Shown: positions 15,601 to 63,271 of the stretch, in pieces
Position numbering within the stretch: position 1 is the stretch's first letter
How the letters are laid out: each line of letters starts with the position of its first letter
DNA from: Candidatus Uhrbacteria bacterium
GTDB taxonomy: Bacteria > Patescibacteriota > Patescibacteriia > UBA9934 > GWF2-40-263
DNA length: 64,000 nucleotides
Direction: 5' to 3'
Assembly: GCA_016844925.1 (NCBI GenBank)
Contig: JAERTI010000056.1
Span: 96,533 to 160,532 of the forward strand
Made by a program: the position numbers and the translations under genes
The notes under the pieces: model-generated
Told to the model about the DNA's origin: nothing
The model's input: only the letters and a program-made list of their open reading frames with translations
Database searches by the model: none

Positions 15601-16431
15601 ATGGCACGGAGGGATTTTTTCAAACGCACACAGCGAAAGCGCTATAAAGCCGGACGGTATCGCAATCCGTATTTTCAGAATGTCAAAAAAATTCCATGGA
15701 AGCCGTTAAGTGCTGTTGTCGGAACGTTGGTTGTGATCTTACTAGGATTAAACCTGATGTTCTCCAGTCCACGTCTTGCGATTCAGAATGTTCAGATTAA
15801 GGGCGTTGAACACATCGACCCAGCTCAAATAGAGCAGCTCGTTCAGTCCTACCTGCAAAGCCGCGCCTTGCTGATATTCAAGACCTCGAACCAATTCTTG
15901 TTTTCTTCTGAAGAGCTGAGTACTGAATTAGAAAACGCGTTTGCATTGGCGAATGTTAGTATGGGGCAGTCAGGGGGGATACTTACGATTACGATCGCAG
16001 AAAGAACGTCGAACTTAATTTGGGAGTCAGGGCAGGGGAGATATGTTGTTGATCTCGAGGGGGTGGTGACACGAAGCCTTGGGGCAGAGGAGGATCTGGG
16101 ACAACCTTTGCCTACATTTTCCGACACAAACAATCTGGACGTCTCAGTAGGGGACATTGTCATGACACCAGAGGAGATCGAGAATGTGTTTGCCTTTCTT
16201 GATCAGCTTGAGGCGCAAGGAATCACGTATGACACCATTCGCGTGGATCGTCTTGCTGGTAAATGGATGAGCGTCGAAACAACCGAAGGATTTGAAATTC
16301 TGTTTGACTCCGTTGGAGACATCTCCACACAAGCCTCTCATTTGGAAACAGTGCTACTAGACCAGGTTGAAGATCGTTCAGAGCTCGAATATATCGATGT
16401 ACGGTTTGGTGATCACGTCTACTATAAATAG
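15601..16431 (+). CDS. ftsQ: cell-division protein FtsQ/DivIB-like
   Basis: Basic N-terminus, single TM helix, then a POTRA-like extracytoplasmic domain. Confidence 0.5.
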   Translation: MARRDFFKRTQRKRYKAGRYRNPYFQNVKKIPWKPLSAVVGTLVVILLGLNLMFSSPRLAIQNVQIKGVEHIDPAQIEQLVQSYLQSRALLIFKTSNQFLFSSEELSTELENAFALANVSMGQSGGILTITIAERTSNLIWESGQGRYVVDLEGVVTRSLGAEEDLGQPLPTFSDTNNLDVSVGDIVMTPEEIENVFAFLDQLEAQGITYDTIRVDRLAGKWMSVETTEGFEILFDSVGDISTQASHLETVLLDQVEDRSELEYIDVRFGDHVYYK

Positions 16432-24142: not shown

Positions 24143-24246
24143 ACCGTCTCCTTGTCATGAGGTGACCACAGTTTATACCCGAAAATAGGCGATTTGTCAA
24201 CCGACCGATCCACGAATTGCCTTGTTTCCGGTATAATGTCGGCACT

Positions 24247-25656
24247 ATGAGAGCCATTTCATTGACCCTCCTACTAGGCATCATCCTCACCAGCTTTCCC
24301 CTTTCCACTGGGGCCGAGGATGATTTTCTTTTTAACCCCCACTACCTCGTTTCTGACGCGGAGATGACCGATGTGTTCTCCATGACAGTTGACGATGTAC
24401 AGCGCTTTCTCACACGTGGAGGTCTGGGAGACCTTGTGACCGAGAACGTCGACGGCATTGAGATGACAGCCGCAGAAATCATCTACAACGCTGCCATCGA
24501 ATTCGAGCTCAGCCCGAAATTTCTTCTCGTCCTTCTTCAACGCGAACAATCTCTTGTGGAAGACGACTTCCCCTCCCAAGATCAACTCGACTGGGCCATG
24601 GGGTATGCGGTCTGTGACGACTGCTCCAAGTCAGATCCACGCATTCAAAAGTTCAAAGGCTTTGGGAACCAGGTCTACTGGGCAGCAGAGCGCATCCGCA
24701 CAAGCTATCTAGAGGATCTTCGTTCACGCGGCTACACTCAGACGGGCATGGGTCCTGGTATCGAGGCAACGATTGATGGAACACTTGTCACACCGGTGAA
24801 CTACGCTACCGCATCTCTCTACACCTACACCCCTCACTTACACGGAAACGAAAACTTCGCACGCATCTGGGAAAAATGGTTCGTGCACGAATATCTAAGC
24901 GGCACTCTGCTACAAGACGTAAGCAATGGGGGTATTTGGTTGATCCAACACGGCGTACGTCGACCAATCACATCCAGGACGGCATTCTACTCACGATTTA
25001 ACCCTGACGCCGTCATTCAAGTTTCCTCCTCAGAGCTCGATCGTTACCCTCAGGGGACCTCTATCAGCTTTCCAAACTATTCTCTCCTCCGCGCGCCGAC
25101 TGGAACTGTCTTCCTTATCGTGGATGATGAACGTCGTGGATTCGCCTCTCAAGACGCCTTCCGCCAAATCGGCTTCTCTCCAGATGAAATCGTCGACGTG
25201 ACCTGGGAGGACCTCGAGGCCTACACAGACGGAACACCGATCACCATCGAATCCGTCTACCCTCAAGGCACTCTCCTTCAAGATAGAAGCAATGGAGGTA
25301 TCGTCTACGTTGAAGAAGGTATTCGACACCCAATCATGTCGCGAGAAATTCTCCAGAACCGCTACGCGTCTCTGCCGGTCATTCCCGTTGACCCAGAAAC
25401 ACTTGAGGATTACGAGATTGGAGACTACGCTCTCTTCCACGACGGAACACTCGTTGCCGCAGAAGGCTCACCTGACGTCTTCGTGATCGCAGACGGGCAG
25501 CGTCGTCACATCGCCGATGAGATTACCTTCCGTGAGTACGGCTGGAGTTTTGACCAAGTCGTGTGGACCAATGAGCGCTCCGTTCTCCTACACCCTCTTG
25601 GGGACCCACTTTCCACGGAGCTTGTTGAAGATATTATTGAAGTCGCTTCAAACTAA
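24247..25656 (+). CDS. secreted repeat-containing protein of unknown function
   Basis: Signal peptide MRAISLTLLLGIILTSFPLSTGA; three tandem repeats of about 100 aa (GTLLQDxSNGGI...G(V/I)R(R/H)PI(T/M)SR...); ORF opens at 24217; TATAAT at 24232-24237. Confidence 0.5.
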   Translation: MRAISLTLLLGIILTSFPLSTGAEDDFLFNPHYLVSDAEMTDVFSMTVDDVQRFLTRGGLGDLVTENVDGIEMTAAEIIYNAAIEFELSPKFLLVLLQREQSLVEDDFPSQDQLDWAMGYAVCDDCSKSDPRIQKFKGFGNQVYWAAERIRTSYLEDLRSRGYTQTGMGPGIEATIDGTLVTPVNYATASLYTYTPHLHGNENFARIWEKWFVHEYLSGTLLQDVSNGGIWLIQHGVRRPITSRTAFYSRFNPDAVIQVSSSELDRYPQGTSISFPNYSLLRAPTGTVFLIVDDERRGFASQDAFRQIGFSPDEIVDVTWEDLEAYTDGTPITIESVYPQGTLLQDRSNGGIVYVEEGIRHPIMSREILQNRYASLPVIPVDPETLEDYEIGDYALFHDGTLVAAEGSPDVFVIADGQRRHIADEITFREYGWSFDQVVWTNERSVLLHPLGDPLSTELVEDIIEVASN

Positions 25657-28759: not shown

Positions 28760-29707
28760 ATGAACGTAGTCTTTTTTGGAACACCACGCTTCGCCTGCCC
28801 GTTCTTAAAGGCCCTCATCGACGACCCCGTAATCGAGGTCGTCGCGGCGTTTTCTCAACCTGATAAGCCAGCAGGGCGAGGTGGAGATTTGCTTGCCGCG
28901 CCTGTGAAACTTCTCGCACAGGATCATCTCATCCCTACGCAAACTCCTAAGAGCCTCAGAAAGGATCCTGCTATCGTCTCTCTTCTAAAACGATACGATG
29001 CGGACATGTTCGTCGTCGTGGCCTACGGAAAGATCTTGCCAAAAGACATTCTCGACATCCCCAAGATGGGAGCGATCAACGTGCACCCATCCATTCTTCC
29101 TCGCCACCGAGGACCATCCCCTATGCAGGCAGCCATCGCACAGGGAGATCTTCAAACAGGCGTGACCATCATGCTACTGGACGAAGGTATGGACACAGGA
29201 CCCCTCTTGGCGTCCGAGACGATTCAAATTGACGACAACGAGACGTACAGTTCACTTGAGAAGAAAGTTCACCTGCAGGGACCAGGTCTCCTGGTCGAGA
29301 CCCTCCACCGATACCACGCAGGACAGGTTGACCCCATTCCTCAGAACGAGGAGAAGGCAACGCTCACGCACCTGCTTCACCGAGATGATGGACATGTTGT
29401 TTGGAGTGAGTCGTTAAGCGAAATTGAACGAAAGAGTCGCGCCTGGCAAAACTGGCCGGGACTCTGGAGCATGTGGGACCGTGTCAGCGGCGTGTGTATC
29501 CGCCTGAAACTTATCTCCGTTAGACCGTCCGATTTCCGCGCTGATGTCCCCCCTGGCACCGCCACCGTTAAGGATGGACGACTCTTTATTGATTGCGCAA
29601 ACGGAACACTGGAGATCCTAGAAATCCAACCGGAGGGCAAACCAAAAATGAACGCGGCGGCGTTCATTCAAGGCTATCCAGACATTCACCGATCCCTACT
29701 GACGTGA
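28760..29707 (+). CDS. fmt: methionyl-tRNA formyltransferase
   Basis: Formyltransferase motifs (INVHPSILPRHRG, SLH-x-D core) plus a C-terminal domain; start lies 2 nt after the def stop. Confidence 0.85.
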   Translation: MNVVFFGTPRFACPFLKALIDDPVIEVVAAFSQPDKPAGRGGDLLAAPVKLLAQDHLIPTQTPKSLRKDPAIVSLLKRYDADMFVVVAYGKILPKDILDIPKMGAINVHPSILPRHRGPSPMQAAIAQGDLQTGVTIMLLDEGMDTGPLLASETIQIDDNETYSSLEKKVHLQGPGLLVETLHRYHAGQVDPIPQNEEKATLTHLLHRDDGHVVWSESLSEIERKSRAWQNWPGLWSMWDRVSGVCIRLKLISVRPSDFRADVPPGTATVKDGRLFIDCANGTLEILEIQPEGKPKMNAAAFIQGYPDIHRSLLT

Positions 29708-31225
29708 GGCGAGAGCCTTTGCAGGAGCGCCTTTCACAGGCGCTGGGACAAATTCCTCGACCTCGGCGGTCGCGGTTTTTTTGTTTACGATAAATGGGAC
29801 AACGAATAAAAGATACCCGAGACCGATCGGATGGTTGAGGTAAGGAGAAAAGATGTGTGTTGCAAAGAGGAGAATAACACCTGCTGTGAGTGCGTACCCA
29901 AGCCACGCTTGATCCGTCCACCGGTAACGCTGAAGCCGCCGAATTAGTTCCCAACCCGCGTAGAGGAAGGCTAAAGGTCCGATTATCCCCATCTTGATCC
30001 AAAGCTCAAACCATCCCCACTCCATAGAATATGTCGTCCATGTTCCATCAGGGTTAATCGCTCGAGCTCGCGGGTCATCAGTTTGGAATGTCACCGTCGC
30101 CCCAAAGCCGTGACCGACAAGTGGGCTGCGAGAGATTTCACCAAGCATCGGCCAGAGGAGTTTCCAACGACTAGAGATCGCCACATCGTCGGAGTCCGTC
30201 GTACGTTCCTTCAGCGAATCGACGAGTGCTGAACTCGTGAGATCCTGCGGTGGGAATGGAAACAGCACAATAGCCACCAACCCAATGACAGCGACAATTT
30301 TCGTGATAAAGACCCACCCAAGATATCTGAAGGTTTGTTTTGTTGTTGGATGATGGGTTCGCCAAAGCATCCAGAGTGTGAAAATAACGGCCGGCGTAAG
30401 CCCTACCCAGAAGCTACGAGATAGGCTCAACAGAACGATACTAAATGTCAGTGCGCCTAACCCCACAAGCCAAGAGCGGCGGATCCCTGATCCAACCATC
30501 GAGAGAACCATCAAGCCAAAAAGCATGACGAAAATCTGTGACTGAATGAAGACGCGATAAAGGCCACCCTCAAGAGCGGTAATCTCAGCAATACGAAGGT
30601 CTCGGAAAAATTCGTAAAGCGGTGTCAAAAGAGAAGCGTCAAGGTGAGAGAAGGCGTAAAGCAGAACCAACGAGAGCCCACTCACCCACACAGCACCAGC
30701 CGCAAGGACTTGCAGGAGGTCATGTCGTTGTTGTGGCCCCCATCGAACAGAAAACATCGGAAGCAGGTAGAGCAAATAGAGGTAGGCATTCCCATCTGCA
30801 AAGACAACGGAAGGATCGCGAGAGAGCGTGCCGATGATCAGCCCCATGGCCGCTGCAAGAATAAGTAGTCCGAAATGTGGTTGATCGACGATATCTGCTC
30901 GACGAAGTTTGTATCGACGTGTCAGCAGACCAATCCCCCACCCTGCCAGGATGCCAATGAAGATTGCCATGCGGAGCGAGAGCGGAAAACCACCAATACT
31001 CGCTGAGATGAGCACGCCATGTGGGTTAATGAACAACTCCAGAAACGCAAGGTACATCGCTCGATCCAGGCGCTTGTAAGCCACAAAGGCACTGGAGAAC
31101 ATCAGACCCAGAATAATCCCCGTCCCCATGTCCCATCCATACGCTAAAAAGCCCAGACCATAGAGAATGGCCGCCATGACGATCGATTCTTTGAATGTTT
31201 TCCCAAAAAACTGCTGCATACTCAC
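29696..31225 (-). CDS. O-antigen ligase/polymerase (Wzy_C)-family membrane protein
   Basis: About 12 TM helices; the loop motif LSLSRSFWVG is typical of WaaL/O-antigen ligase-like proteins. Confidence 0.5.
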   Translation of the reverse strand: MSMQQFFGKTFKESIVMAAILYGLGFLAYGWDMGTGIILGLMFSSAFVAYKRLDRAMYLAFLELFINPHGVLISASIGGFPLSLRMAIFIGILAGWGIGLLTRRYKLRRADIVDQPHFGLLILAAAMGLIIGTLSRDPSVVFADGNAYLYLLYLLPMFSVRWGPQQRHDLLQVLAAGAVWVSGLSLVLLYAFSHLDASLLTPLYEFFRDLRIAEITALEGGLYRVFIQSQIFVMLFGLMVLSMVGSGIRRSWLVGLGALTFSIVLLSLSRSFWVGLTPAVIFTLWMLWRTHHPTTKQTFRYLGWVFITKIVAVIGLVAIVLFPFPPQDLTSSALVDSLKERTTDSDDVAISSRWKLLWPMLGEISRSPLVGHGFGATVTFQTDDPRARAINPDGTWTTYSMEWGWFELWIKMGIIGPLAFLYAGWELIRRLQRYRWTDQAWLGYALTAGVILLFATHIFSPYLNHPIGLGYLLFVVPFIVNKKTATAEVEEFVPAPVKGAPAKALASRQ

Positions 31226-35397: not shown

Positions 35398-36687
35398 CTA
35401 GTCCCCTTCCTCCGTGGGCAGGTCCGAGAACAGGCTCGGTCCGTCGTAGGGCAGGAGCAGCTCGCGCCCCGTCTTGATGCGCCCTCGCTTGTCAGGCGAG
35501 ATCTTTGCCTTGGACTCAGGGCGGGTGCTCACCGGACGCGCCATCAGCTGCTTGAGCACCTTCGGCCTGTGTCCGATGACGCGAGACCAGATCTCCTCGA
35601 GCCCGGGGCCGAGATCACCGTACAGGATGGCTTCTGCCTGTGAGAGCAGGACCACATCGTTGCCGAAGGTCTGCCAGGGGTTCGGCGTGGAACTCTCGGA
35701 CACCTGCGCGTTCGAATCCTTGGTCTTGAACATCTTGCCGAGACCACCGAAGAACCGCTTCAGAGCCCCTTGTTCCTCCTCGTTCTTCATCGCGAGCGGA
35801 TCCTCTTCGACCCTTCCGTCTCGGAACGTCCCCTCCGGATTGCCATCGAGCTTGATGTCCTGCACAACGATGACACACCGCTGCCTGACCACCTCCTCTC
35901 CGTCCTCCATGACCGTGTAGGGCACGTAGGCGTGCGCGCAGTAGATCTCGAAGGTGGCGCCGGTCTGGACCTCACCCTTGCCGTACAGATTCACCAGACG
36001 ACGACAGGCAGACTCCAGGCGTGCGCGCAGGATGGTCCGAGAGTCGTAGTCCGCATCCCGATCCTCGTCAGAGGTCAGGACCTTCACCTCCTCTCGGAAC
36101 AGGTTGACCACCTCGCTTGTCGACGGGAACAGCTGAACGAACACGTCCACGTCCTCTTCGCCGGTGTCCGGGTCGACCTCCGTGTGCATGATGGTTCCAC
36201 GGATGGCGATGATGGCGGGCGTGTGCTGATCCGCAAGGACCATCGATCGCTCAGACGCGCTGGGGTAGTCGATCACCTTGCCGCCAACACCCTCGTCACC
36301 GGGGACCGTCAGATCCTCGCCCTCTTCGTTGCCTGAGAACGTGCTGAGCGGCTGCTCGGCAGTCAACAGACGAACGAATGGGACGTGCGCCGGCATCTCC
36401 CCCGGAAGGAAGGTCTCACCCGTGACCGTGTTGGTCGCGATGAAGACGTGCGTCTCACGCCCAGGCACTTCGGACTCGAACTCAGCTGCCGCCCGATTTG
36501 CCGAGAGCTCGTCGAACGGGATCAGCTTGCCAGCACGATCCAGCATGACGCGTTCACGTGACTGACTGTTGCCGGTGAGCATCACCACCGCCCCCTTTCG
36601 GACAGCCTTCTCGGGCAGCTCTGACACATCGGCGACGACCTTGTTGGTCGGCACCTGGATGCGGTTGTCATTGTTTTTTTGGGTCAC
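35398..36687 (-). CDS. hypothetical protein, 429 aa (GC-rich island; no recognisable domain)
   Basis: GTG start preceded by AAAGGAGG with a 5-nt spacer; GC about 60% with strong third-position G/C bias; acidic, soluble; ends ...PTEEGD. Confidence 0.5.
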   Translation of the reverse strand: MTQKNNDNRIQVPTNKVVADVSELPEKAVRKGAVVMLTGNSQSRERVMLDRAGKLIPFDELSANRAAAEFESEVPGRETHVFIATNTVTGETFLPGEMPAHVPFVRLLTAEQPLSTFSGNEEGEDLTVPGDEGVGGKVIDYPSASERSMVLADQHTPAIIAIRGTIMHTEVDPDTGEEDVDVFVQLFPSTSEVVNLFREEVKVLTSDEDRDADYDSRTILRARLESACRRLVNLYGKGEVQTGATFEIYCAHAYVPYTVMEDGEEVVRQRCVIVVQDIKLDGNPEGTFRDGRVEEDPLAMKNEEEQGALKRFFGGLGKMFKTKDSNAQVSESSTPNPWQTFGNDVVLLSQAEAILYGDLGPGLEEIWSRVIGHRPKVLKQLMARPVSTRPESKAKISPDKRGRIKTGRELLLPYDGPSLFSDLPTEEGD

Positions 36688-44159: not shown

Positions 44160-45476
44160 TCATCGCTGTAAGAGATGTGGAGCTCTGTGGGTTAAGATAA
44201 GAATACCACCTGAAACAATCATCATGAGAGCGAGGAAGAAAATAGCAACCAACACAATACGGTTCTGCAGAGAAAAGAACGGAACGAGCACTGTCGAAGT
44301 CTCAACATCGTGAATTCCCTCTTCATCCTCAACCGAAAGTGATACTTGGAATGCACCACTTGTGGCAAACGTATGTGTGACCTGAGGTTTTGATGACGTC
44401 ACACCATCACCAAAGTCCCAGCGATAAACAGCATCATCCTTGGCGTATGTGTAAGTTTTCCGAGTCTCGGTAGACGCAGAGTCTTCTTCGTCACCGTCCC
44501 CAATAGAACCACTTGAATATTTAACAGCCTCCTCAGGTGCTAGAAGTGTAAATGTATACGTATTCCAACTGTCACGTGTATAGGAAAACACCGCATTTGA
44601 TGAAATGACGATCTGATTGTCACTTACCGCTTGTCCTGAATCTAGAACAACCTCTAACTCCTCCACATCCTCCGTAGAAGAATCCTCGTCATCGGCAACC
44701 GTAACCGAATGAGTAACCTGCCCTGTTTCATCTTCCTGCGTCGTTTCGATTTCTTCGACAAGTTCAGCAATAATCTGATTGAACGCCTCTGATGTTTCTG
44801 CAGGCTCAGGCGCCACCTCCTCAACAACTTCCGGTTCTACAATAACTTCTTCAATGACTGTTCGCTCGCTGTCCGTAGGATAAGCGTCATCAGCGTCCGG
44901 CACACCATCACTATCAGTGTCAGCGTTTGTTGTATCTGTGCCGATCTCCACCTCAACCTCATCGCTCACTCCATCATTATCATCGTCTGTGTCACAGGCA
45001 TCACCGGCCCCATCTGAGTCTGAATCCAGCTGATCGGCATTCGGTGTCTGAGGACATGAGTCGTTGGCATCTGACACACCATCACGATCCGCGTCCTCAA
45101 TAGGGTCCATCGTGTTCGTGATCGTAAAGTTGTTTTCTAAATTTACATCGACTGGGTCCGTCCCTTCGATTCTCGCCATGATGTTAAAGCTCCCAGACGG
45201 CACGACAATATCAAGATAAACCTCCTCAGGGTTTCCTCCGGCCAGAACAGAAATAACCTGTGACTGCCCCAGCACAGATGCTCCTTTGTAAAAGTTCACA
45301 TACCCAGAGACGTCCTCATCCGCCTCGTTATGAATCGAAGCATAAATACGCACTGTGTCTCCCACAACAAGCGTATCGTCGGAAAAACGGACATCATTCT
45401 GACTGATACTTAAATCCGCTGTGGCATGTGCAGCCATCGGGAACAGCACTATGAGCAACGAGAGTAAATATTTCAT
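44160..45476 (-). CDS. cell-surface protein: signal peptide, CARDB-like domain, thrombospondin type-3 (Ca-binding D-rich) repeats, PKD domain, C-terminal TM anchor
   Basis: DADRDGVSDANDSCPQTPNADQLDSDSDGAGDACDTDDDNDGVSD (TSP3-like repeats); YRWDFGDGVTS...THTF (PKD domain); C-terminal hydrophobic helix followed by HRAPH. Confidence 0.6.
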   Translation of the reverse strand: MKYLLSLLIVLFPMAAHATADLSISQNDVRFSDDTLVVGDTVRIYASIHNEADEDVSGYVNFYKGASVLGQSQVISVLAGGNPEEVYLDIVVPSGSFNIMARIEGTDPVDVNLENNFTITNTMDPIEDADRDGVSDANDSCPQTPNADQLDSDSDGAGDACDTDDDNDGVSDEVEVEIGTDTTNADTDSDGVPDADDAYPTDSERTVIEEVIVEPEVVEEVAPEPAETSEAFNQIIAELVEEIETTQEDETGQVTHSVTVADDEDSSTEDVEELEVVLDSGQAVSDNQIVISSNAVFSYTRDSWNTYTFTLLAPEEAVKYSSGSIGDGDEEDSASTETRKTYTYAKDDAVYRWDFGDGVTSSKPQVTHTFATSGAFQVSLSVEDEEGIHDVETSTVLVPFFSLQNRIVLVAIFFLALMMIVSGGILILTHRAPHLLQR

Positions 45477-46027
45477 AAAACGATTGTATCACCTGATTGT
45501 AGCCAAAGTTCAGCTGCCTCATCTGCACTTATATGCAGCGCTGGGACAAATGTTGGGTGAATACGGACAACGACGTGATTAATGCTTCGAGCACCCGCCT
45601 GAACACTCACGACATCCCCTTGTGCCACCCCCTTAGCCTCCGCTGCACTTGATGAGAGGTGTAAGTGACGTATAGGCGTAATCGTACTCATTTTCGCCAC
45701 AACCTCCCCCGCAGGCCCTTTCAACGTCACGCTCGCGGATCTGTCTAAATCACCTGAAATGCGCAACGGTGCCTTTACCCCTATAGAATGCGCGTCACTC
45801 GCGGAAAGTTCAACCTGTGTCGACGCCCGCTCTGGACCCAATACACAGACTCGATCAAAAATCCCATCCGGTCCAATAACTTGCACACGCTGACGAGCCA
45901 CATATTGTCCTCGGTGTTCCAGTGTTCTTTCTGGCTCCAAAGCCTCGTTGCCAAAGAGGACTTTCTGATCCTCTGCAGACAGATGCACGTGTCGAAACTG
46001 CAATACCACTGGTATCTCCATATCCAT
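45473..46027 (-). CDS. pduL: PduL-type phosphate acyltransferase (EutD/Pta substitute)
   Basis: Two PTAC repeats, each with an RHxH motif (QFRHVHLSAEDQKVLFG; TPIRHLHLSS), plus a LGPxR...APLRISGDL middle segment matching Salmonella PduL. Confidence 0.7.
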   Translation of the reverse strand: MDMEIPVVLQFRHVHLSAEDQKVLFGNEALEPERTLEHRGQYVARQRVQVIGPDGIFDRVCVLGPERASTQVELSASDAHSIGVKAPLRISGDLDRSASVTLKGPAGEVVAKMSTITPIRHLHLSSSAAEAKGVAQGDVVSVQAGARSINHVVVRIHPTFVPALHISADEAAELWLQSGDTIVL

Positions 46028-49786: not shown

Positions 49787-49817
49787 TTATCTTCGCATGT
49801 CCACACTAGGAGGAACT

Positions 49818-50747
49818 ATGGACTACAGAGCGTTCCTGCGCAGACACGACGCTGCGCTCAAGACGGCAGGACTCTGGGCGAGGGCCTGGACACTGCAGCG
49901 ACTGCTCGAAAGCTGCCTGCTCGTCGTCAAGATGGATGCAACCTACTACACACGTGAGTGGGCCATCAAGCACCGACAGATGCTGGTCGATGCTCTCTGC
50001 GAAGTCTGTGTGACGGCGCAGATCCCGCTGCCGGACATCGAGCCGGACATGGTCAATGGCCTGTTGCCCACGGACCAAGAACTGAAGCCCGGCTCCCGCA
50101 AACGACTCGAGATCGTCCAGACCTTGCGCGGTCGACTGCGTGATCACGGGAGTCTGGGAGCGGCAGAGCTCCACGGCTTTGCCGATGTGCTCAGCGCCTT
50201 CGAGTTCAACGACTTCAGCGGCCCCAACATGGTCCAGATGCTCGCCGCAATCAACGCTCGCCTGCTCAAGGAGGGGCTCGAGCCCCTCCGTGGCCCCTAC
50301 AAGGGCAATGTGATCTGCCCGGGCGCTGGCACAGAGGGACCTCTGCGCACGGTGCTGATCGTGGACGACAGTCTGGAGGCCTTGATCAAGACGTGGATCG
50401 CCGTCGCAGGTTGGCCCACTCTCGAGCCTCACAAGTACCTGTACGAACCCTCGCAGAGAACCCTGCTGGAGGGAGAGGCAAGCGAGACTCGGCTTGCCGA
50501 GGTGGCCGCGCAAATCCTGAAGTGCCAGCCGGACGTCGTCATCATGGACCACGGCCTGGGCGACATCCACGGAGACAAGCTCATCGAGACCCTTCGGGCG
50601 AGCGGTGGCAAGGACATCATCTTCGTCGCCAATACCGGCGGTGACATCGACGCGTTCAGATCCGTCCGATTGCGCGAGAACTTCGACAAGGGCAAGAACC
50701 TCTCTGCCCTCGCGTCGGCGCTCCATCGAGCGAACCGACGCCGCTAG
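49818..50747 (+). CDS. orphan response-regulator-like protein: novel N-terminal domain with a C-terminal receiver (REC) domain (GC-rich island)
   Basis: AGGAGG ribosome-binding site 5 nt before the ATG at 49818; C-terminus has VLIVDD (beta1), DVVIMDHGLGDIHG (beta3 with phospho-acceptor Asp), ANTGG (beta4 Thr) and FDKGK (beta5 Lys); the N-terminal 175 aa show no recognisable motif. Confidence 0.5.
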   Translation: MDYRAFLRRHDAALKTAGLWARAWTLQRLLESCLLVVKMDATYYTREWAIKHRQMLVDALCEVCVTAQIPLPDIEPDMVNGLLPTDQELKPGSRKRLEIVQTLRGRLRDHGSLGAAELHGFADVLSAFEFNDFSGPNMVQMLAAINARLLKEGLEPLRGPYKGNVICPGAGTEGPLRTVLIVDDSLEALIKTWIAVAGWPTLEPHKYLYEPSQRTLLEGEASETRLAEVAAQILKCQPDVVIMDHGLGDIHGDKLIETLRASGGKDIIFVANTGGDIDAFRSVRLRENFDKGKNLSALASALHRANRRR

Positions 50748-50769
50748 AGCCTCTCAGGCTCTTTTTTTC
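50746..50769 (+). terminator. rho-independent terminator
   Basis: agagcc-tctca-ggctct hairpin followed by TTTTTTT. Confidence 0.5.
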
Positions 50770-50772
50770 TTG

Positions 50773-50814
50773 CACGCTAATCCATTGACAAACCGTCATT
50801 TTTTGATTAGCGTG
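50773..50814. promoter_or_regulatory. 10-bp perfect inverted repeat (candidate operator) enclosing a promoter -35 box
   Basis: CACGCTAATC-N22-GATTAGCGTG; TTGACA (50785-50790) plus 17 bp plus TAGCGT lie inside it; 52 nt upstream of the gene at 50866. Confidence 0.35.
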
Positions 50815-50865
50815 TCGTGTGGCGAATGGATTGCCGCACCCGAAACTCCTAGGCCTGGAGGGCCT

Positions 50866-51513
50866 ATGTTTACCCTCATGCTCGTGCCCATGTTCTCGCC
50901 GGATGGCGAAGAAGGCGGGCGGCGTGAGAAGCGGAAGGTTCCCCGAAAGAACCCCCGCATCAAGAGCAAGCTCGTCTGCGAGAAGGACCCCAAGAGCGGA
51001 AAGACTACCGGCACAGCCGTGCTGAACATGCACCAGTGCACCGGAGACCTGGCTCCGCAGCGGTTCGAAAGCGGACGTCTGTACAAGCAACTCCTCTTCA
51101 GCATCACCGAGGACCACGGCGTCCCTGCATTCACCAACCTGACCCCCAAGGGCATGGAGGCGTTCGTCGCGGGCAACAGTCGCCCCATCCAGATCGTGGA
51201 AGTCATCGCCGTCCCCGACTTCGATGGCGGAGAGCTCGAAGTCACGATGTACTCCACCCCGCCCATCAGCTGGGGTGGCAAGGACCTCTCCGACAAGCTG
51301 ATGGCTACGGGCCTGCTCATGCTCATGGGCTACGAGGAGATCCCGCTGGGTGAAGACGCCGAGGCCAGCATGGACCTGGGTCTGCCCGAGCTCGACGAAG
51401 GCTTCATCGACCTGCTCGACAGCACCATGGGCTACCACTCCCCCGAGATGGACATGGAACTCCTGGAGGACGAGAACTCCGACGATTGGCTCTTCGAGGC
51501 CGAAGGCGACTAG
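50866..51513 (+). CDS. hypothetical acidic protein (GC-rich island)
   Basis: 215 aa; basic N-terminus (RREKRKVPRKNPRIKSK) and a very acidic C-terminal third ending ...DDWLFEAEGD; the 50605 ORF is a 5' extension. Confidence 0.4.
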   Translation: MFTLMLVPMFSPDGEEGGRREKRKVPRKNPRIKSKLVCEKDPKSGKTTGTAVLNMHQCTGDLAPQRFESGRLYKQLLFSITEDHGVPAFTNLTPKGMEAFVAGNSRPIQIVEVIAVPDFDGGELEVTMYSTPPISWGGKDLSDKLMATGLLMLMGYEEIPLGEDAEASMDLGLPELDEGFIDLLDSTMGYHSPEMDMELLEDENSDDWLFEAEGD

Positions 51514-51522
51514 CTCAAACGA

Positions 51523-51574
51523 AAAAGCAGCTTTACGCTGCCCCGCACCCTTACGTGGGTGCTATTTATTTTGT
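51523..51574. terminator. back-to-back terminators for convergent genes
   Basis: gcagc-tttac-gctgc preceded by AAAAA serves the minus strand; gcaccc-ttacgt-gggtgc followed by TATTTATTTT serves the plus strand. Confidence 0.5.
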
Positions 51575-52504
51575 TCGAATTTCTGTGACCTCGTAGCCAG
51601 CGAACCCTTCCACAAACCCATCAGGGGTAAGGGTCTCAAGATTTCCCTGGGCAAACGGCGTGAGCTGCACCTCCAGCACGAGCGGGTTCTCTGCATTTGC
51701 CAAAATACGCAACGACCCGAACCGATTCTTGGCTTCGATCACTCTTACGCTACTAACCACGCCATCAATCGTCACCGTGTACTCACCCCAATCACCAGAG
51801 GCTTCGAGGTCCAAGAGATCTTCTTCCACTTCCTCTTCAGCCCCGTCGTCGGTATCTCCAGGGATAAGTGTGGCGAGCTGATCGATATAACTCTGCACCT
51901 GATCTGCCACATCCTCAATCTGAGCAAGTGACTCATCAAACAGCCCAAAGCTGAGCGTGGTCTTGCGTGTATTTACAAGCTCGTCGTACTGCGCTCGAGA
52001 GAGCCAGATGAGTGTCTCTTCAACCTCACCAGAGTCCCCTTCCGTCCAAAGACTTGGGAGCAGCAGGCGCTCCCCATCATCGAGAGCCGACGTGGAAATC
52101 GTGCCCTCGACAACAACATCTTGATACTCCACTTCTGGAGCATCAGGAATCTCTTCTCCGATCGGTGTCTCGGCATACTGAGCCTCATGAGCCTCACGTG
52201 CAGCCGTCGACGCTTCCGTCTCTTCCTGCGTTGTAATTGACCAGGAAAGATCTACACGCTCCCCAGCAGTCCACGACTCAAGCTTGACCACACGCTCATC
52301 TGATTCTGCGCCAAGCCAATCGACAATCTGCCCGCCGACCCCTAAGACTGTCGGCTGCAATACAACTTCTGCTCCAGAAGCAAAAGAAAGCGACTGAGCC
52401 GCTTCCTCTGCTGTTAACGTTGAGGTGACCTGCGCTACGCACCCTGCGCCAAATAAAACCAGCGCTGAGAGCCCGAGTGCAACTCGCCCCATGGTTAAGA
52501 TCAT
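51566..52504 (-). CDS. hypothetical secreted/lipoprotein-like protein
   Basis: Start taken at MILTMGRVALGLSALVLFGAGC (signal with a Cys; weak lipobox); the ORF extends upstream to 52702 but that stretch would overlap the thioredoxin-like gene. Confidence 0.4.
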   Translation of the reverse strand: MILTMGRVALGLSALVLFGAGCVAQVTSTLTAEEAAQSLSFASGAEVVLQPTVLGVGGQIVDWLGAESDERVVKLESWTAGERVDLSWSITTQEETEASTAAREAHEAQYAETPIGEEIPDAPEVEYQDVVVEGTISTSALDDGERLLLPSLWTEGDSGEVEETLIWLSRAQYDELVNTRKTTLSFGLFDESLAQIEDVADQVQSYIDQLATLIPGDTDDGAEEEVEEDLLDLEASGDWGEYTVTIDGVVSSVRVIEAKNRFGSLRILANAENPLVLEVQLTPFAQGNLETLTPDGFVEGFAGYEVTEIRTK

Positions 52505-52505
52505 A

Positions 52506-52772
52506 CTATTCAGAGATGTCTTCTCCAGCTGCCCACTTCGCGAGTCGCTCCTCGGAAGTCGCGCCACAGATCCACATCTTAGATTCATCATTATAGAAAA
52601 ACGGAACACCGCCGCACTTACCGCCATCAATTTCCTCAAGCTTTTTGGCATTGTCATCGTTATGCCATGTCTCAAGCTTCTCAATCGCGGTGCCGTCCTC
52701 AATCATTCTATCCACAATGGGAAGCATTTGATGACAGTGTGGGCATTCCTCTCCGTAAAAAAAGTAGAGCAT
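52506..52772 (-). CDS. thioredoxin/glutaredoxin-like small protein
   Basis: CPHC active-site motif (GEECPHCHQMLPIV) and GGVPFF further along. Confidence 0.6.
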   Translation of the reverse strand: MLYFFYGEECPHCHQMLPIVDRMIEDGTAIEKLETWHNDDNAKKLEEIDGGKCGGVPFFYNDESKMWICGATSEERLAKWAAGEDISE

Positions 52773-58569: not shown

Positions 58570-61458
58570 CTAGTCGAATCGAATGGCCTGACCTGACTTA
58601 AGGGTACCTGATTGAACTGAAGGAGCTGTGGTTTCTGGCTTTGGTTTCTCTTGCGCAGGTGCCGGCTGTTCTTTCTTTGGTGCAGCCTCGACGCGCTCCT
58701 TCGGCTTACGCTCCCCCTCTCCTGTCGAGGGCCTGGACTCGCCACCAGCACTAGGCTTTTTCTTTCGACGTCGCTTTCGTTTCTTCTTCGGCGCATCAGA
58801 TGAACGCCCCTGCCCCCTTGTAGCGTTCGATTCTCTTGGCTTACGAGGAGTAGATGTCCCCTTTTCCTTCCCCTGATCTTTACGACGCTCCGCACGAATC
58901 TTCTCAAGACAATCCTCACAATACATCGGACGGCTTCGATCAAGCTTCACATCGGCTGTGAAGTTCTTTGTGCAATCTGAACAGGTGTAGTCACCGCTGT
59001 CGTGGGCAACATGTGAAGCTTCTGCCTTTGGTGCATCCACCTTTTCTGATGGCGCACGCTCTATCTCTTGTCGTGGTGCCCGATCCTCATCAGCCTTCTT
59101 CTCACTCTCAACCTCTCGAACAACCTCAACCTCTTTCCTGGTCTCTACCCGCTTTTCGCGGCGAGTCTCTCGCTTCTTATCGTCACTCCTAGACGATGTT
59201 CGTTCTCCACGCGATCGATCACCTCGCTCATCTGTTCGACCATTCTTTGACGCAGCAGATTCCACTGGTGCTTCTTCTCTCGGTGCGGTTTCCTTGGAAG
59301 GCTCCTGCCCCTTCACTGGCTCAACAGCAACAGCTTCAGCTCTAACTTGAGGTTCTTTCTTTGGCTCTGCCGCAGCAGTTGGTTCCGTTTGAGCGACAGG
59401 CTCTGCCGCTTTCTTTGGAACAACTTCTTCTTTTGAAGCCCCTTGTGCCTTTGCCTCCGATCGAGTCTCATCTGCTCCAGCAGTCCGTGCGTCCTCAGAC
59501 GCAACGTTAGCGTTTGATTCGTCAGCAGCCTTAGCCTCTTGTTTCTTTTTGCCAGCTTCGACATCTTTCGTCGCTGCACTCGTTGCCTCAGCTTGCGACC
59601 GACCCGCTCCACCTCTATCGACGTCCACTTGCTTGGATTCAGTGCTAGCCACTGTCTCGTCGGTCGTTTTTTCATGCTCTACAGCAGCAGTCTTATCCTC
59701 CGATTCTTCCTTCGACTCATTCTTTAATTCTTCTTTCGACGATCCCTTCGTATCCTTCCTCAACGCCTCTAGCCCAACAGCGGCCTCCTCAACAGGCTTC
59801 TCAACAACCTCTGTCTCTGCTGGTTTTGGTGGCTCTGGCCGTGGCTCTTTCTTCTCAGGAGCCCCAGCCTTCTTCCGGTCATCCTTCTTCCTGTCATCAC
59901 GAGCAGGCTTATCAGCCGTCTTAGGCTTGTCACCTGCCTTGGGTCTTGGTGGACGCTTCCCACCCTTCTTTTTCTCCTCACGAACAATCGTAATACAATC
60001 GTCACAATAAATCGGACGACTTCGATCTAGTTCAACGGGCAACACAATGTCGGTGTCACACCGCGTACAGTTGTACTCATGACGTGGCTTTCCTCCTTTA
60101 CCACCGCCACCACTGGCCGCCTTCTTTTTCTTCTCTGCTTCTTTGTACAAATCTTCGACATCATGATCGGCCATGCCACTCCAGATCAAGATCTTCTCCT
60201 CGATCTGTTCCCGAGGTGCCGCATAACGCTCACGAGAAATCTTCGTCACTTTATCGAAACTATGAGTCTTCTCTGCAATTGGTGGAAGTGTCACCGCAGA
60301 AAACGGCATGGAGGTCACACCGTCGATGAGGAGCTTCAGGTACACATTATATTTCGGCAGGTTGATGATGTCCTCAGGGGTGAAGCGAGGCATGAACTCC
60401 TGCTCCATAAACATCGCATCAGGTGAACCCACACGAAAGGTCACCATGGTTCCAACGTTACCAAACACCGCATCACGCACCGCCTCTGAAAGCTGGGCGA
60501 TGTACTGGTGGGCCATGGTCAGACACAAGCGATACTTACGTGCCTCGGACAAAATCGACGCAAACGAATCAACGGCAAAGTTTTGGAACTCATCAACGTA
60601 CAAGTAAAAGTCGTCACGCAAGTGCTCTGGTGTGTCCACGCGCTCCATGGCGGAGAGCTGAATCTTTGTCACAAGCAAACCACCCAAGAGACGGGAGTTA
60701 TCTTCTCCCACACGCCCCTTGGACAGGTTGATAATGAAAATCTTGTTCGAGTCCATGATCTCACGAACGTTGATCGTGGACTTCACCTGCGAAACAATAT
60801 TTCGGATCACGCTCGCAGAGAGAAACTGACCGATTTTGTTCTGAATCGCCGCCGTCGCCTCTGTGGCATACTTCTCTGTCCAACTCGCAAATTCCTTCAC
60901 CCAGAATTGTTTCACCACTGGATCTTTAATATTCCCCACCATCCGCTTTCGATACTCGGCGTCAGACATCATGCGGTTAATGCCCAAGAGCGTCTGCCCC
61001 TGGTTATCAAGCAATGCCAAAATGGTGTTGTTCAAGATGTATTCCATTCGAGAGGACCACATTCCCTCCCAAATCTTGGCAAATACTCCCATCATTCCTG
61101 AGGCAACCAAGTGTTTATGCCGCTCTGAAACCGCCTCAAGAATATTAAACCCAACCGGGTAATCAAGGTCGGCCGGATTGAAATACACCACGTCGTTGAG
61201 ACGCCATGACGGGATAAAGTCGACAAGTTTCTCAGCGGCATCTCCGTGAGGATCGATGTAGCAACAACCATGCCCGGCATAAATGTCGGATAGCATCAGG
61301 TTCTCCATCAAGGTCGACTTTCCCATACCCGTCTTTCCAATGACGTACATATGTCGTCGACGGTCGTCCGTCTTGATGCCGAACTTCGTCATCGCATTTC
61401 GGAAATTGGTCTTTCCGAAATAGATCACTTCGTTCTCATGGTCGTGATTCATGCTCAT
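58570..61458 (-). CDS. VirD4/TrwB/TraG-family (type IV coupling protein-like) P-loop ATPase with a ~530-aa charged low-complexity C-terminal extension containing two zinc-ribbon repeats
   Basis: Walker A (VIGKTGMGKST), Walker B-like (FYLYVDEFQNF), T4CP signature (RKYRLCLTMAHQYIAQL); no TM helix; the tail has two C-x2-C-x17-C-x2-C units sharing LDRSRP(I/M)YC(D/E)DC. Confidence 0.6.
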   Translation of the reverse strand: MSMNHDHENEVIYFGKTNFRNAMTKFGIKTDDRRRHMYVIGKTGMGKSTLMENLMLSDIYAGHGCCYIDPHGDAAEKLVDFIPSWRLNDVVYFNPADLDYPVGFNILEAVSERHKHLVASGMMGVFAKIWEGMWSSRMEYILNNTILALLDNQGQTLLGINRMMSDAEYRKRMVGNIKDPVVKQFWVKEFASWTEKYATEATAAIQNKIGQFLSASVIRNIVSQVKSTINVREIMDSNKIFIINLSKGRVGEDNSRLLGGLLVTKIQLSAMERVDTPEHLRDDFYLYVDEFQNFAVDSFASILSEARKYRLCLTMAHQYIAQLSEAVRDAVFGNVGTMVTFRVGSPDAMFMEQEFMPRFTPEDIINLPKYNVYLKLLIDGVTSMPFSAVTLPPIAEKTHSFDKVTKISRERYAAPREQIEEKILIWSGMADHDVEDLYKEAEKKKKAASGGGGKGGKPRHEYNCTRCDTDIVLPVELDRSRPIYCDDCITIVREEKKKGGKRPPRPKAGDKPKTADKPARDDRKKDDRKKAGAPEKKEPRPEPPKPAETEVVEKPVEEAAVGLEALRKDTKGSSKEELKNESKEESEDKTAAVEHEKTTDETVASTESKQVDVDRGGAGRSQAEATSAATKDVEAGKKKQEAKAADESNANVASEDARTAGADETRSEAKAQGASKEEVVPKKAAEPVAQTEPTAAAEPKKEPQVRAEAVAVEPVKGQEPSKETAPREEAPVESAASKNGRTDERGDRSRGERTSSRSDDKKRETRREKRVETRKEVEVVREVESEKKADEDRAPRQEIERAPSEKVDAPKAEASHVAHDSGDYTCSDCTKNFTADVKLDRSRPMYCEDCLEKIRAERRKDQGKEKGTSTPRKPRESNATRGQGRSSDAPKKKRKRRRKKKPSAGGESRPSTGEGERKPKERVEAAPKKEQPAPAQEKPKPETTAPSVQSGTLKSGQAIRFD
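58895..58990 (-). repeat. intragenic repeat copy 2 (encodes the second zinc ribbon)
   Basis: DNA and protein similarity to 59990-60075 (YTCSDCTKNFTADVKLDRSRPMYCEDC versus YNCTRCDTDIVLPVELDRSRPIYCDDC). Confidence 0.55.
59990..60075 (-). repeat. intragenic repeat copy 1 (encodes the first zinc ribbon)
   Basis: See copy 2. Confidence 0.55.
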
Positions 61459-63224
61459 ACGGGCAGATTGGGTGGTACGTAATCATCTGTCTCTTCGGAC
61501 ACTTCTTGGGCACTAGCAGGCGCATCCGTCGGCGAAGGTACACTCAAAGGTGCATCAAGTGCCTCATGCTCTGCCTCTTCGTGCTGCGCGCGCATAGCCG
61601 CAAAATTCTCAGGGTCGATCACCCGAGGTGCTGGTGTTACCTGTTCAAGTGCATCTGGCGCAGGTGCTTGTGCTGGTGGCGACTCGATCCTGCGAGCATC
61701 TAACTGTGTAGGCGCTACCGGCCGTGGAAGCGTGCCAGGAAGTGGCTCATCAGAAACATCGGTTGGCAGCCCAATCGGTGGCGCTCCTTTCTTTGTCGGC
61801 TCACCTGCCCCAACAGGCAGTCCTGGAATATCCTCAGCAGGAGCCGGCTGCTGATCATACCCAGGCAAAATGTTCTCCATGTGCGTAATAGGCAGCCCCA
61901 CAGGTGGTTCGCCGCGCTTGGACTCGGACTTGCGCACAAGCGGTGCTTTTACCGTAATCGTTGGGAAGTGCCAGAGCGTGGCAAGCTCCTCAGCATTCAA
62001 AAAGATCGGGTTGGCACCGACACCAAAACTTCGACCCTTGTAGGCACGTATAAGCTTCCCCTGACGTGCTGTATACGCCAAACGCATCCACCAGTAGTCA
62101 TCTTTAGGAACCGTCGGGATGTAAAAAGAAAATCGGTTTAAATTCAGGTGAGCGTACTGGTTCAACATTCCTTTGATGATCGCCGTACGCTCCACCTTCA
62201 CAAAAGCGTTCTTCTTCGCGGAATACAAGATGCGAATCTTTACCCCATGTCCCACCTTGGTGGTCTTGCGCAAGACAGCCTCCGCCTCGTCCTTCTGTGG
62301 AAGCGTCATCTTAAACGCCTTCCACGGGTCATCCTCGGTCTCTCCAGGAACGCCAAACAACAATGGATTCAGGTCGATACCCAGCGCCTCATTCAGAAGA
62401 CCACTTGGCCAGGACATAAGGCTCTCAAGCGCCGAAAGGAATGCGCTCTTCTTTGGCTTGTCCTCATCGCCGTAAATTTTTCGTACGTGCTTCACACCGT
62501 GCTCTGCCCAACTGTTTGTGGACGGCTGTACAAGCATCTGGAACCAAAAATGCTCTCCGGGTTTCATCTTGGCCATCTGCTCAAGCATGTAGCCCAGTGG
62601 ATCCTTAATCTCTCCCGTCAGCCGGTCCTCAAAATCGACATACGTCCGAATGGGGTACATGTAGTGCCTGTCGAGCGTAATCTCACCTCCCCACATCTCG
62701 TACTCTTCATCCGGAAACTCACTTGGGAAGTTTGTGACATAATCTTCCACCTCAAAGATCTCCGCGTCAGGATAGTGCGCATAGATACCCGCCTCGATCA
62801 CATCACGGAAACGCGTCTGTGTGCGAATCAAAAACTGGATGTAGCCTTCCGTCGAGATAATCTCAAAGGAAAACGTTGGGTGGAGTTTTCCGTAGATCCA
62901 TTCTTCCTTCCAGGTGATAGACGACTTGGCGCCATAGAGTGTCGCAAACAAGTTCTCCAGCGCCTTTGGTGTCTGCTCTGTCATGGCTGGAACATCAATC
63001 GCCAAGAGTACATACTTTAGCCGACCCACATACTTTCCCTGCCTGGAGTTTTTCCACATCGCAATGAATCCCCAGAACAACGTGACCACGATAGGAATCC
63101 ATGCGGTCCAAACAAAAACATCCCAAAGGATGACATCAATCCGTTGGCTAAAATACGCAGACCAACCGCTACCTCCGGCCGTTGCGACTTCATTCACAAT
63201 TGGGATGGCAAGCATGGGTAACAT
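61455..63224 (-). CDS. hypothetical membrane protein (2 N-terminal TM helices, large soluble domain, Pro-rich C-terminus), translationally coupled to the T4CP-like ATPase
   Basis: ATGA start/stop overlap with the downstream ATPase gene; N-terminal helices VILWDVFVWTAWIPIVVTLFWGFIAMW; the C-terminal 150 aa are P/A/E-rich. Confidence 0.4.
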   Translation of the reverse strand: MLPMLAIPIVNEVATAGGSGWSAYFSQRIDVILWDVFVWTAWIPIVVTLFWGFIAMWKNSRQGKYVGRLKYVLLAIDVPAMTEQTPKALENLFATLYGAKSSITWKEEWIYGKLHPTFSFEIISTEGYIQFLIRTQTRFRDVIEAGIYAHYPDAEIFEVEDYVTNFPSEFPDEEYEMWGGEITLDRHYMYPIRTYVDFEDRLTGEIKDPLGYMLEQMAKMKPGEHFWFQMLVQPSTNSWAEHGVKHVRKIYGDEDKPKKSAFLSALESLMSWPSGLLNEALGIDLNPLLFGVPGETEDDPWKAFKMTLPQKDEAEAVLRKTTKVGHGVKIRILYSAKKNAFVKVERTAIIKGMLNQYAHLNLNRFSFYIPTVPKDDYWWMRLAYTARQGKLIRAYKGRSFGVGANPIFLNAEELATLWHFPTITVKAPLVRKSESKRGEPPVGLPITHMENILPGYDQQPAPAEDIPGLPVGAGEPTKKGAPPIGLPTDVSDEPLPGTLPRPVAPTQLDARRIESPPAQAPAPDALEQVTPAPRVIDPENFAAMRAQHEEAEHEALDAPLSVPSPTDAPASAQEVSEETDDYVPPNLPV

Positions 63225-63242
63225 TGGCCTTATTGTATCAAA

Positions 63243-63265
63243 AAACTGGGGAGAGCCCCAGTTTT
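63243..63265 (-). terminator. palindromic hairpin terminator after secF
   Basis: ctgggg-agag-ccccag, with TTTTTT on the minus strand and TTTTCTT on the plus strand. Confidence 0.45.
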
Positions 63266-63271
63266 CTTATC

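Follow-up and report, generated by a model that had tools for sequence, protein, structure and literature searches.

What kind of machine is encoded by two overlapping genes that lie among housekeeping genes in a Candidatus Uhrbacteria genome? The sequence studied here, referred to as the window, comprises 64,000 nt of contig JAERTI010000056.1 (forward-strand positions 96,533-160,532), and all window coordinates are given relative to its start. Two open reading frames (ORFs) on its minus strand, ORF A and ORF B, encode a membrane protein and a soluble P-loop ATPase, respectively. The original prediction, made from the sequence of the window, had described them as a motor resembling a type IV coupling protein (T4CP) with a dedicated membrane partner, possibly acting alone in DNA uptake or transfer. 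The pair was found to be a split ATPase of the VirB4 architecture with a T4CP-type motor. With a probability of about 0.5, the two proteins were further judged to be the two halves of one membrane-anchored translocation ATPase of the T4SS (type IV secretion system) type, which would deliver its substrate into a T4SS channel.

The coordinates and lengths of the two ORFs (589 and 962 aa) and the ATGA stop/start overlap between them (61455-61458) were borne out by the ORF calls (Table 1). The ATPase signatures that had been quoted were located at aa 41-49 (GKTGMGKST), aa 287-294 (YVDEFQNF), and aa 314-323 (TMAHQYIAQL) of ORF B, and a hydropathy scan agreed that this protein lacks any transmembrane (TM)-length hydrophobic stretch. 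The proline-rich tail of the partner was also recovered, with 18% proline across aa 446-582. Of the two TM helices proposed for ORF A, the presence of a membrane segment was upheld, while their number was not, as only one TM-length segment (aa 29-57) was detected.

The motor of ORF B resembles type IV coupling proteins

The three T4CP-related Pfam families that had been proposed as a check all matched ORF B above their gathering cut-offs: TrwB_AAD_bind at 43.2 bits (cut-off 20.5; aa 27-343), T4SS-DNA_transf at 24.0 bits (cut-off 20.1), and TraG-D_C at 24.6 bits (cut-off 22). FtsK_SpoIIIE (16.1 bits versus 24, P-loop region only), the HerA family DUF87 (20.5 bits versus 23.2, aa 34-78 only), and AAA_10 (16.4 bits versus 27.5) remained below theirs, and CagE_TrbE_VirB gave no Pfam match to ORF B. 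When a profile of the motor was compared with all PDB sequences, the sole matches were DotL/IcmO and TrwB (E ~1.5e-4). Among reference proteins, the motor hidden Markov model (HMM) matched TrwB at 25.6 bits and pSK41 TrsE at 9 bits only, and gave no match to TrwK/VirB4, E. coli FtsK, or phage G gp155. A T4CP-like rather than FtsK/HerA-like motor is supported by these comparisons. A grouping with the FtsK/HerA clades, which had been raised as the alternative that would speak against a coupling-protein motor, was ruled out by the Pfam cut-offs together with the HMM tests on reference and PDB sequences. In addition, the TrwB_AAD_bind model matched at aa 27-343 includes the all-alpha domain that T4CPs carry inside the nucleotide-binding domain, and helices were predicted at ~aa 112-236, between Walker A and Walker B, in a low-confidence AlphaFold model (predicted local distance difference test, pLDDT, 54.5).

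The motor is followed by a long disordered tail with zinc ribbons, where Pfam zf_Tbcl_2 matched at 27.7 bits (cut-off 27) in two stretches. At least one zinc ribbon was present in nearly all members of the family. The distal part of the ORF B tail is basic (net charge +19 at aa 853-949), and among 72 loci the ATPase tails were net positive in 70 (median +11), while the DUF8128 tails of the partner proteins were net negative in 59 (median -6.5). These complementary charges may reflect an electrostatic or a nucleic-acid-mimic interaction, and the zinc ribbons and basic tail hint at a nucleic-acid substrate. The ATPase of the window was the longest seen (962 aa, compared with about 520-870 aa in its relatives), and ~330 aa of low-complexity sequence rich in E, K, and A separate its two zinc ribbons within the tail (aa 431-962, 58570-60168).

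ORF A carries a DUF8128 domain with a predicted VirB4-like fold

Homologues of ORF A at 44-98% identity carry precomputed assignments to PF26449 (DUF8128), a family of 1,924 clusters at 50% identity (E<=1e-3). ORF A itself had no match in the Pfam and NCBIfam libraries, where the Pfam copy scanned did not contain the PF26449 model. Its AlphaFold model showed one long helix at aa 29-68 covering the TM-length segment; residues 1-10 are also hydrophobic, but too few to span a membrane. The basic stretch KNSRQGKYVGRLKY that follows the TM segment suggests an N-out/C-in orientation by the positive-inside rule.

The large conserved domain that follows includes the invariant motifs TEQxP, PKDDY-W, and E-A--WHFP. 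A fold search with the predicted DUF8128 structure returned TrwK, a VirB4 protein, as its best match and EccE of the type VII system as its second best. An N-terminal domain of the VirB4 fold is thus predicted to be present in ORF A, which revises the original view of this protein: a T4CP-like motor with a membrane partner was confirmed, while the partner would be more than an anchor, given the VirB4-N-terminal-domain-like fold of its predicted structure. A DUF8128 profile found no match at E<=1 among PDB sequences. Between the domain and the variable Pro/Ala-rich linker lies a conserved EPPVGLP motif (aa 439-445), and the protein ends with a peptide whose consensus, PPxNLP, was kept in the DUF8128 family down to 37% domain identity.

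The two genes are paired across Patescibacteria

The homologues of ORF A and ORF B come from Candidatus Uhrbacteria and other Patescibacteria. Relatives of DUF8128 were found in at least 574 GTDB species genomes in a scan of one genome per species, and the breadth of the domain as charted covers Parcubacteria-type lineages; named records include Uhrbacteria, Falkowbacteria, Paceibacter, and Minisyncoccota. Pairing was examined at 80 species-representative loci with a DUF8128 gene, and 83 loci were used for counts of SecF position and T4SS proximity. A T4CP-like ATPase lay directly downstream of DUF8128 on the same strand at 75 of the 80 loci, so that the synteny suggested for checking was seen across related genomes, and the pairing is far beyond chance. 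Three of the five loci without a paired ATPase end at a contig edge, while the other two are L070, with ~0.5 kb downstream, and L051, with 6 kb downstream and no ATPase. Neither of these two DUF8128 copies has the C-terminal PPxNLP peptide, and they may represent paralogues or a decoupled lineage. The L051 copy spans 5932-7368 and is followed by a 603-aa ORF unrelated to the motor, and the L070 ORF covers the match at 6001-7272.

Spacing was scored for 78 pairs, among which were the window and one duplicated record; the gap had a median of 5 nt, with a 4-nt overlap in 13 pairs and a gap of at most 20 nt or an overlap in 57. Sequence identity across loci ranged from 58 to 87% for the motor domain and from 37 to 84% for DUF8128. 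The motor domain was more conserved than SecF in 58/59 loci (median identities of 68.9% for the motor, 57.7% for SecF, and 42.8% for DUF8128), as would be expected for a core gene with vertical inheritance rather than for the cargo of a conjugative element. Judged from these sequence comparisons, the DUF8128-motor pair appears to be a vertically inherited core gene pair in Patescibacteria and not mobile-element cargo.

Relatives in phages and plasmids

Outside the Candidate Phyla Radiation (CPR), as the Patescibacteria are also known, both modules were found in phages and on plasmids. In the phage family phrog_5156 (824 positions), positions 50-212 aligned with ORF A and positions 406-805 with ORF B (197 bits). 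Phage G gp156 (825 aa) is a fusion of a DUF8128-like and a motor module, with its C-terminal half matching the motor at 170 bits. It is without the N-terminal anchor of the CPR proteins, because its DUF8128-like region starts at ~residue 15, and no zinc-ribbon tail was found in it by a Pfam scan. The protein is encoded in a T4SS-like module (L084, 2872-8436) together with gp153 (TrbL_4/VirB6-like) and gp155 (VirB4-like, P-loop_TraG).

On plasmids, the two modules also occurred as separate, neighboring genes. For example, the order on a Haladaptatus megaplasmid is a VirB4-like gene (1,072 aa), a DUF8128-like gene (hhalign 96%, E 3e-9), and a "T4CP" gene that matched the motor at 145 bits. Similarly, a B. 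subtilis plasmid encodes a 171-aa DUF8128-like protein (hhalign 95.7%) directly before an ATPase matching the motor at 139 bits. In an Embleya plasmid cluster that includes PrgI/VirB3, an ATP-binding protein, a relaxase-family protein, and NlpC/P60, the motor (220 bits) forms the C-terminal half of an 812-aa protein. The motor likewise forms the C-terminal half of the unannotated SPO1 gp27.4 (L094, 3747-6467; 906 aa), with 63 bits to the CPR motor profile. The N-terminal halves of these two proteins (~415 aa in SPO1 gp27.4) are collinear with DUF8128 without a significant match (hhalign ~7%), and a DUF8128-motor fusion is suggested in both by length and position only. A tblastn search with the motor returned 298 plasmid records (Streptomyces 123, Bacillus 42, Staphylococcus 33, as well as haloarchaea and Sulfolobus) and 31 phage records, SPO1 gp27.4 included.

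By these scores, the ORF B motor belongs to a distinct clade, with far stronger matches to its members (139-355 bits) than to TrwB (~25 bits). A VirB4-like ATPase gene accompanies the unit in phage G and on the haloarchaeal plasmid, and several non-CPR relatives lie near VirB4-like or VirB3-like genes. The unit of a VirB4-N-terminal-domain-like protein and a T4CP-like motor is ancient and widespread, because it was found fused or adjacent in phages and on archaeal and bacterial plasmids. It exists in fused and split forms and, outside CPR, often within T4SS-type clusters. The proposal of a two-component unit was hence strengthened from three sides: near-obligate adjacency in Patescibacteria, fusion in phage proteins, and adjacency on archaeal and Bacillus plasmids.

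Several other occurrences were recorded. A Sulfitobacter mediterraneus plasmid (L091, 4986-6173) carries a motor-only copy of 395 aa, which was the closest non-CPR relative (355 bits, 40% identity). It has neither a DUF8128 neighbor nor a tail, is flanked by a recombinase and transposases, and may be a horizontally acquired fragment. A Pontibacillus megaplasmid (L085, 5890-7161) encodes a 423-aa DUF8128-like protein whose last 30 residues weakly resemble the beginning of the motor profile, and nothing is annotated downstream of it. This could be a fusion in decay or a pseudogene. The motor family was also frequent among Bacillus phages, such as those of the SPO1-like and CP-51-like groups.

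Comparison with known systems

The pair was placed in the T4SS ATPase superfamily, in neither the T4CP nor the VirB4 family, because it lacks the TM domain within the motor protein and the relaxase/T4SS linkage of the former, and its motor profile did not match the latter. With VirD4, TrwB, and DotL, ORF B shares the P-loop motor, the Walker A and B motifs, and the three T4CP families of Pfam, and a helical insert between Walker A and B, predicted in the low-confidence model, may be a further common feature. By sequence, the motor has no solved relatives other than TrwB and DotL. ORF B differs from these coupling proteins in having no N-terminal TM anchor of its own, which ORF A would supply in trans, and in its score of only ~25 bits to TrwB as opposed to 145-355 bits to its own clade. 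Zinc ribbons, a long basic tail, chromosomal core status, and an obligate VirB4-N-terminal-domain-like partner also set it apart, as does the absence of relaxase or T4SS linkage in the 64-kb window and in the CPR loci inspected. The architecture of VirB4 (TrwK of R388), an N-terminal scaffold followed by a motor, is reproduced by ORF A and ORF B together and by the fused phage forms. Here, however, it is divided between two genes, its motor is T4CP-like in sequence, and ORF A has a TM helix instead of a reliance on VirB3. The strongest non-CPR phage matches for the two halves, gp156/phrog_5156 and proteins of Bacillus phages (JL, Slash, and SPO1 gp27.4), contain both modules in the same order, in SPO1 gp27.4 as judged by length and position. 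In contrast to the CPR pair, gp156/phrog_5156 is a phage-encoded single polypeptide, and gp156 adjoins VirB4-like and TrbL-like genes.

Two other systems offer parallels to a division of this kind. TraJ of pIP501 is a T4CP without a TM domain, for which membrane anchoring by the separate small protein TraI was proposed (PMC12857230). ORF B is likewise a TM-less T4CP-like motor with an anchor proposed in trans, whereas TraI is a small two-TM protein, ORF A has a conserved VirB4-N-terminal-domain-like domain of ~370 aa, and the pIP501 system is conjugative, plasmid-borne, and equipped with a relaxase. TrsD of the MPF-FATA and Patescibacterial T4SSs is small, reportedly resembles the VirB4 N-terminus, and is encoded beside the T4SS ATPase (PMC12102498). 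The TrsD-TrsE (VirB4) pair thus parallels the arrangement of an N-terminal domain in trans, but the partner of TrsD is VirB4 and not a T4CP-like motor, and pSK41 TrsD showed no TM-length segment in a hydropathy scan. The EccE/EccC proteins of type VII secretion showed far weaker similarity; EccC has TM helices of its own as well as three ATPase domains, and proteins are what this system exports. The archaeal Ced import system (CedA/CedB) is chromosomal and relaxase-less, and moves DNA with a T4SS-derived ATPase and small membrane partners. Its likeness to the pair is conceptual only: no significant homology was found, the membrane partners differ, and an NCBIfam CedD match on ORF B was restricted to the P-loop region (26 bits versus a cut-off of 600).

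Proposed mechanism and alternatives

On the basis of the paired genes and their domains, the similarity in fold, synteny, conservation, and fusions, a mechanism is proposed in which ORF A would insert into the membrane by one helix and present its VirB4-like scaffold to the cytoplasm. ORF B would dock on this scaffold at the membrane, as the VirB4 motor does on its own N-terminal domain, and form an oligomeric ATPase, probably a hexamer by analogy. Docking is proposed because VirB4 has both parts in one chain and because fused phage homologues exist. The terminal peptides (PPxNLP of ORF A and GQxIxFD of ORF B) would mediate docking, either to each other or to further partners, and the zinc ribbon and basic tail would capture the substrate, most likely nucleic acid or nucleoprotein, which ATP hydrolysis would then feed into a membrane channel. 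The most likely channel would be the chromosomal, relaxase-less, MPF-FATA-like T4SS of most Patescibacteria, encoded at another locus. A VirB4-type T4SS was reported in 2,417 of 3,035 Patescibacteria genomes (~80%), and only 148 of 5,713 Patescibacterial T4CP homologues were near virB4 (PMC12102498). For example, one Uhrbacteria genome has VirB3-VirB4-TrsD as genes 2-4, and its t4cp1 matches are genes 395 and 471. Because a T4SS is encoded elsewhere in ~80% of the genomes, the stand-alone status assigned to the motor by the original prediction cannot be deduced from one 64-kb window.

Several observations weigh against this mechanism. No T4SS genes were found within ~6 kb at any of the 83 loci or in the 64-kb window. 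Comparisons by hhalign gave DUF8128 a probability of 0.3% with TrwK/VirB4 and of 0.7% with pSK41 TrsD, the latter from a single TrsD sequence and hence of limited sensitivity; because there is no sequence-level similarity to either, the VirB4 link of DUF8128 rests on predicted structure. Because the motor alignment was too uniform (75-87% identity), its AlphaFold model was of poor quality and was not used for the fold search. Additionally, T4CP homologues were reported in 2,918 of the 3,035 Patescibacteria genomes, more than the 2,417 with VirB4, and in Southlakia the T4CP homologue was dispensable for epibiotic growth while the T4SS was essential (PMC12102498), although the 5,713 published T4CP hits, which that paper calls VirD4-type, may or may not correspond to the DUF8128-paired gene. 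A VirB4-negative Uhrbacteria genome also retained a high-coverage t4cp1 match.

The prevalence of T4CP homologues over VirB4, the VirB4-negative genome, and the dispensable Southlakia T4CP make a T4SS-independent role a serious rival, which we regard as possible, if on balance unlikely. The pair would then be a stand-alone housekeeping translocase that moves DNA or RNA in or out, for example through ComEC, or clears DNA at division. Such a role would also fit the motor conservation above SecF, the absence of neighboring T4SS genes in CPR loci, and the zinc ribbon and basic tail, which would suit nucleic-acid binding. However, one TM helix per subunit provides no obvious channel, several of the non-CPR relatives examined sit with VirB4-like or VirB3-like genes, and virB4 can be missed in draft genomes. 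No ComEC or divisome gene was linked to the pair in the window annotation, a ComEC knockout in Southlakia abolished competence and left viability unaffected according to the literature, and Saccharibacteria have an annotated ftsK of their own. A protein-export or envelope-biogenesis helper tied to the Sec system was considered improbable. In 68 of the 83 loci, SecF was encoded upstream and on the same strand (adjacent in 47), SecA lay a few kb upstream in two loci (L001 and L003), and the second-best structural match of DUF8128, EccE, belongs to a protein-exporting system. Nevertheless, a strong terminator-like hairpin occupied the same position between secF and DUF8128, with a different sequence, in 44 of the 47 loci with an adjacent secF. 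The two genes are probably not in one tight operon for this reason, and coupling to the secDF operon was weakened as an explanation. The zinc ribbon and the basic tail instead suggest nucleic acid, the non-CPR relatives have no Sec neighbors, and we know of no T4CP-family ATPase that works with Sec.

That the motor is an ordinary conjugative coupling protein on an integrated mobile element, as its family resemblance to T4CPs and the plasmid and phage relatives might suggest, was essentially refuted. No VirB4, VirB6, relaxase, pilin, or integrase was found by Pfam scans of the ~50 larger ORFs in the window, in line with the original statement that relaxase, VirB4, and pilus genes are missing there; the scanned ORFs belong to housekeeping families apart from a few without a match. 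Even in distant species, secDF, uppP, HD, and mnmA are retained as neighbors, the motor surpasses SecF in conservation, and a scan of IMG/VR for CPR-type DUF8128 returned nothing. On these grounds, mobile-element cargo was ruled out, which the original prediction had named as the ordinary alternative. A component of anti-phage defense related to the HerA/mad8-like ATPases was found hardly credible at all. ORF B matched PADLOC mad8 at 51 bits (E 3.6e-14), and its HerA matches were weak; no other defense genes lie nearby, the DUF8128 partner has no PADLOC match, and, in contrast to defense islands, the pair occurs almost universally, is inherited vertically, and shows high conservation. The defense reading was rejected on context and conservation.

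Significance of the pair

Orphan T4CP homologues in Patescibacteria have already been published. In the searchable literature, which does not cover most subscription-journal papers, no paper mentioning the DUF8128 family was found, nor any report of its obligate partnership with the motor or its predicted VirB4-like fold, of fused forms in phages, of candidate docking peptides and tails with complementary charges, or of a conservation above that of SecF. The split-ATPase assignment would give the orphan T4CP homologue DUF8128 as its partner and, with a VirB4-like N-terminal domain in trans, a rationale in structural terms, and it gives this Pfam domain of unknown function a putative role. Candidate docking peptides and a candidate substrate-binding tail were identified for the pair, which was placed in a family spanning archaeal, actinobacterial, and Bacillus plasmids as well as Bacillus phages. 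Patescibacteria contribute much of the diversity of bacteria and rely on host cells, and the findings bear on the exchange of macromolecules between CPR bacteria and their hosts and on the evolution of the two T4SS ATPase families. A more far-reaching and rather doubtful idea is that the pair belongs to a third, ancient line of T4SS ATPases in which a T4CP-type motor has retained an N-terminal domain of the VirB4 type. This line, possibly a link between VirB4 and VirD4, would have been domesticated in Patescibacteria as a near-universal, T4SS-independent mover of nucleic acids across or at the membrane. If so, such a machine could, for example, acquire host-derived DNA or RNA.

Features of the locus and genomic surroundings

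Table 1. Features of the ORF A-ORF B locus, with positions relative to the start of the window
Feature	Position	Strand	Basis or remark
ORF A, DUF8128 (PF26449) membrane partner, 589 aa	61455..63224	minus	ORF call
TM-length hydrophobic segment (single), aa 29-57, IDVILWDVFVWTAWIPIVVTLFWGFIAMW	63054..63140	minus	Hydropathy scan
Conserved alpha/beta domain, predicted cytoplasmic, aa ~70-425	61950..63017	minus	Predicted VirB4/TrwK N-terminal-domain-like fold
Variable acidic Pro/Ala-rich linker, aa 446-582	61479..61889	minus	Net charge -18
Conserved C-terminal peptide of ORF A, VPPNLPV	61458..61478	minus	PPxNLP in the family consensus, located at the C-terminus or close to it
ORF B, T4CP-like P-loop ATPase, soluble, with long disordered tail, 962 aa	58570..61458	minus	ORF call and Pfam
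Motor domain, aa 1-430	60169..61458	minus	Pfam, phrog_5156, conservation
Walker A of motor	61312-61338	minus	
Walker B of motor, YVDEFQNF	60577-60600	minus	
Zinc ribbon 1, CxxC-x17-CxxC, aa 464-488	59995..60069	minus	Pfam zf_Tbcl_2, NCBIfam TIGR04272
Zinc ribbon 2, aa 826-850	58909..58983	minus	Second copy, restricted to the window and closely related Uhrbacteria
Poly-basic patch in ORF B tail, KKKRKRRRKKK	58756..58788	minus	Consensus KKRKRxRK
Conserved extreme C-terminal peptide of ORF B, SGTLKSGQAIRFD	58573..58611	minus	Family consensus (K)PGQxIxF(D)
secF-ORF A terminator-like hairpin (region 63225-63271)	63242..63265	minus	10-bp stem and T-run

After the hairpin, TTGATACAAT lies 18 nt before the ATG of ORF A as a possible extended -10 element; if used as such, it could imply a very short or absent leader for ORF A. 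Elsewhere in Uhrbacteria, where the partner protein was only 44-48% identical, the genes were again arranged as SecD-SecF-DUF8128-ATPase-(hydrolase)-UppP-HD-MnmA.

The families identified in the rest of the window included an AddA-type helicase-nuclease, MreB/MreC/PBP2, several aminoacyl-tRNA synthetases (AlaRS among them), Alr, ClpB, PriA, Fmt, a polysaccharide cluster, RpoA, S4, MurJ, CorA, Era, MnmA, an HD protein, UppP, and SecF. No tRNA or Rfam matches were found in the window. Four ORFs of 276-509 aa had no Pfam family: 35398-36687 (-), 29696-31225 (-), 24217-25656 (+), and 15601-16431 (+). The highest-GC stretch of the window, 49797-52702 (GC 0.595 at 50-52 kb), holds long overlapping ORFs on opposite strands (49797..50747 on the plus strand versus 49806..50726 on the minus strand, and 50605..51513 on the plus strand versus 50656..51438 on the minus strand), and the two ORFs scanned from it had no Pfam matches. 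Finally, a 438-aa protein with thrombospondin type-3 repeats and a PKD domain is encoded at 44160-45476 (-), between a PTAC-family gene (45473-46027) and murJ, and may be a surface or adhesion protein.

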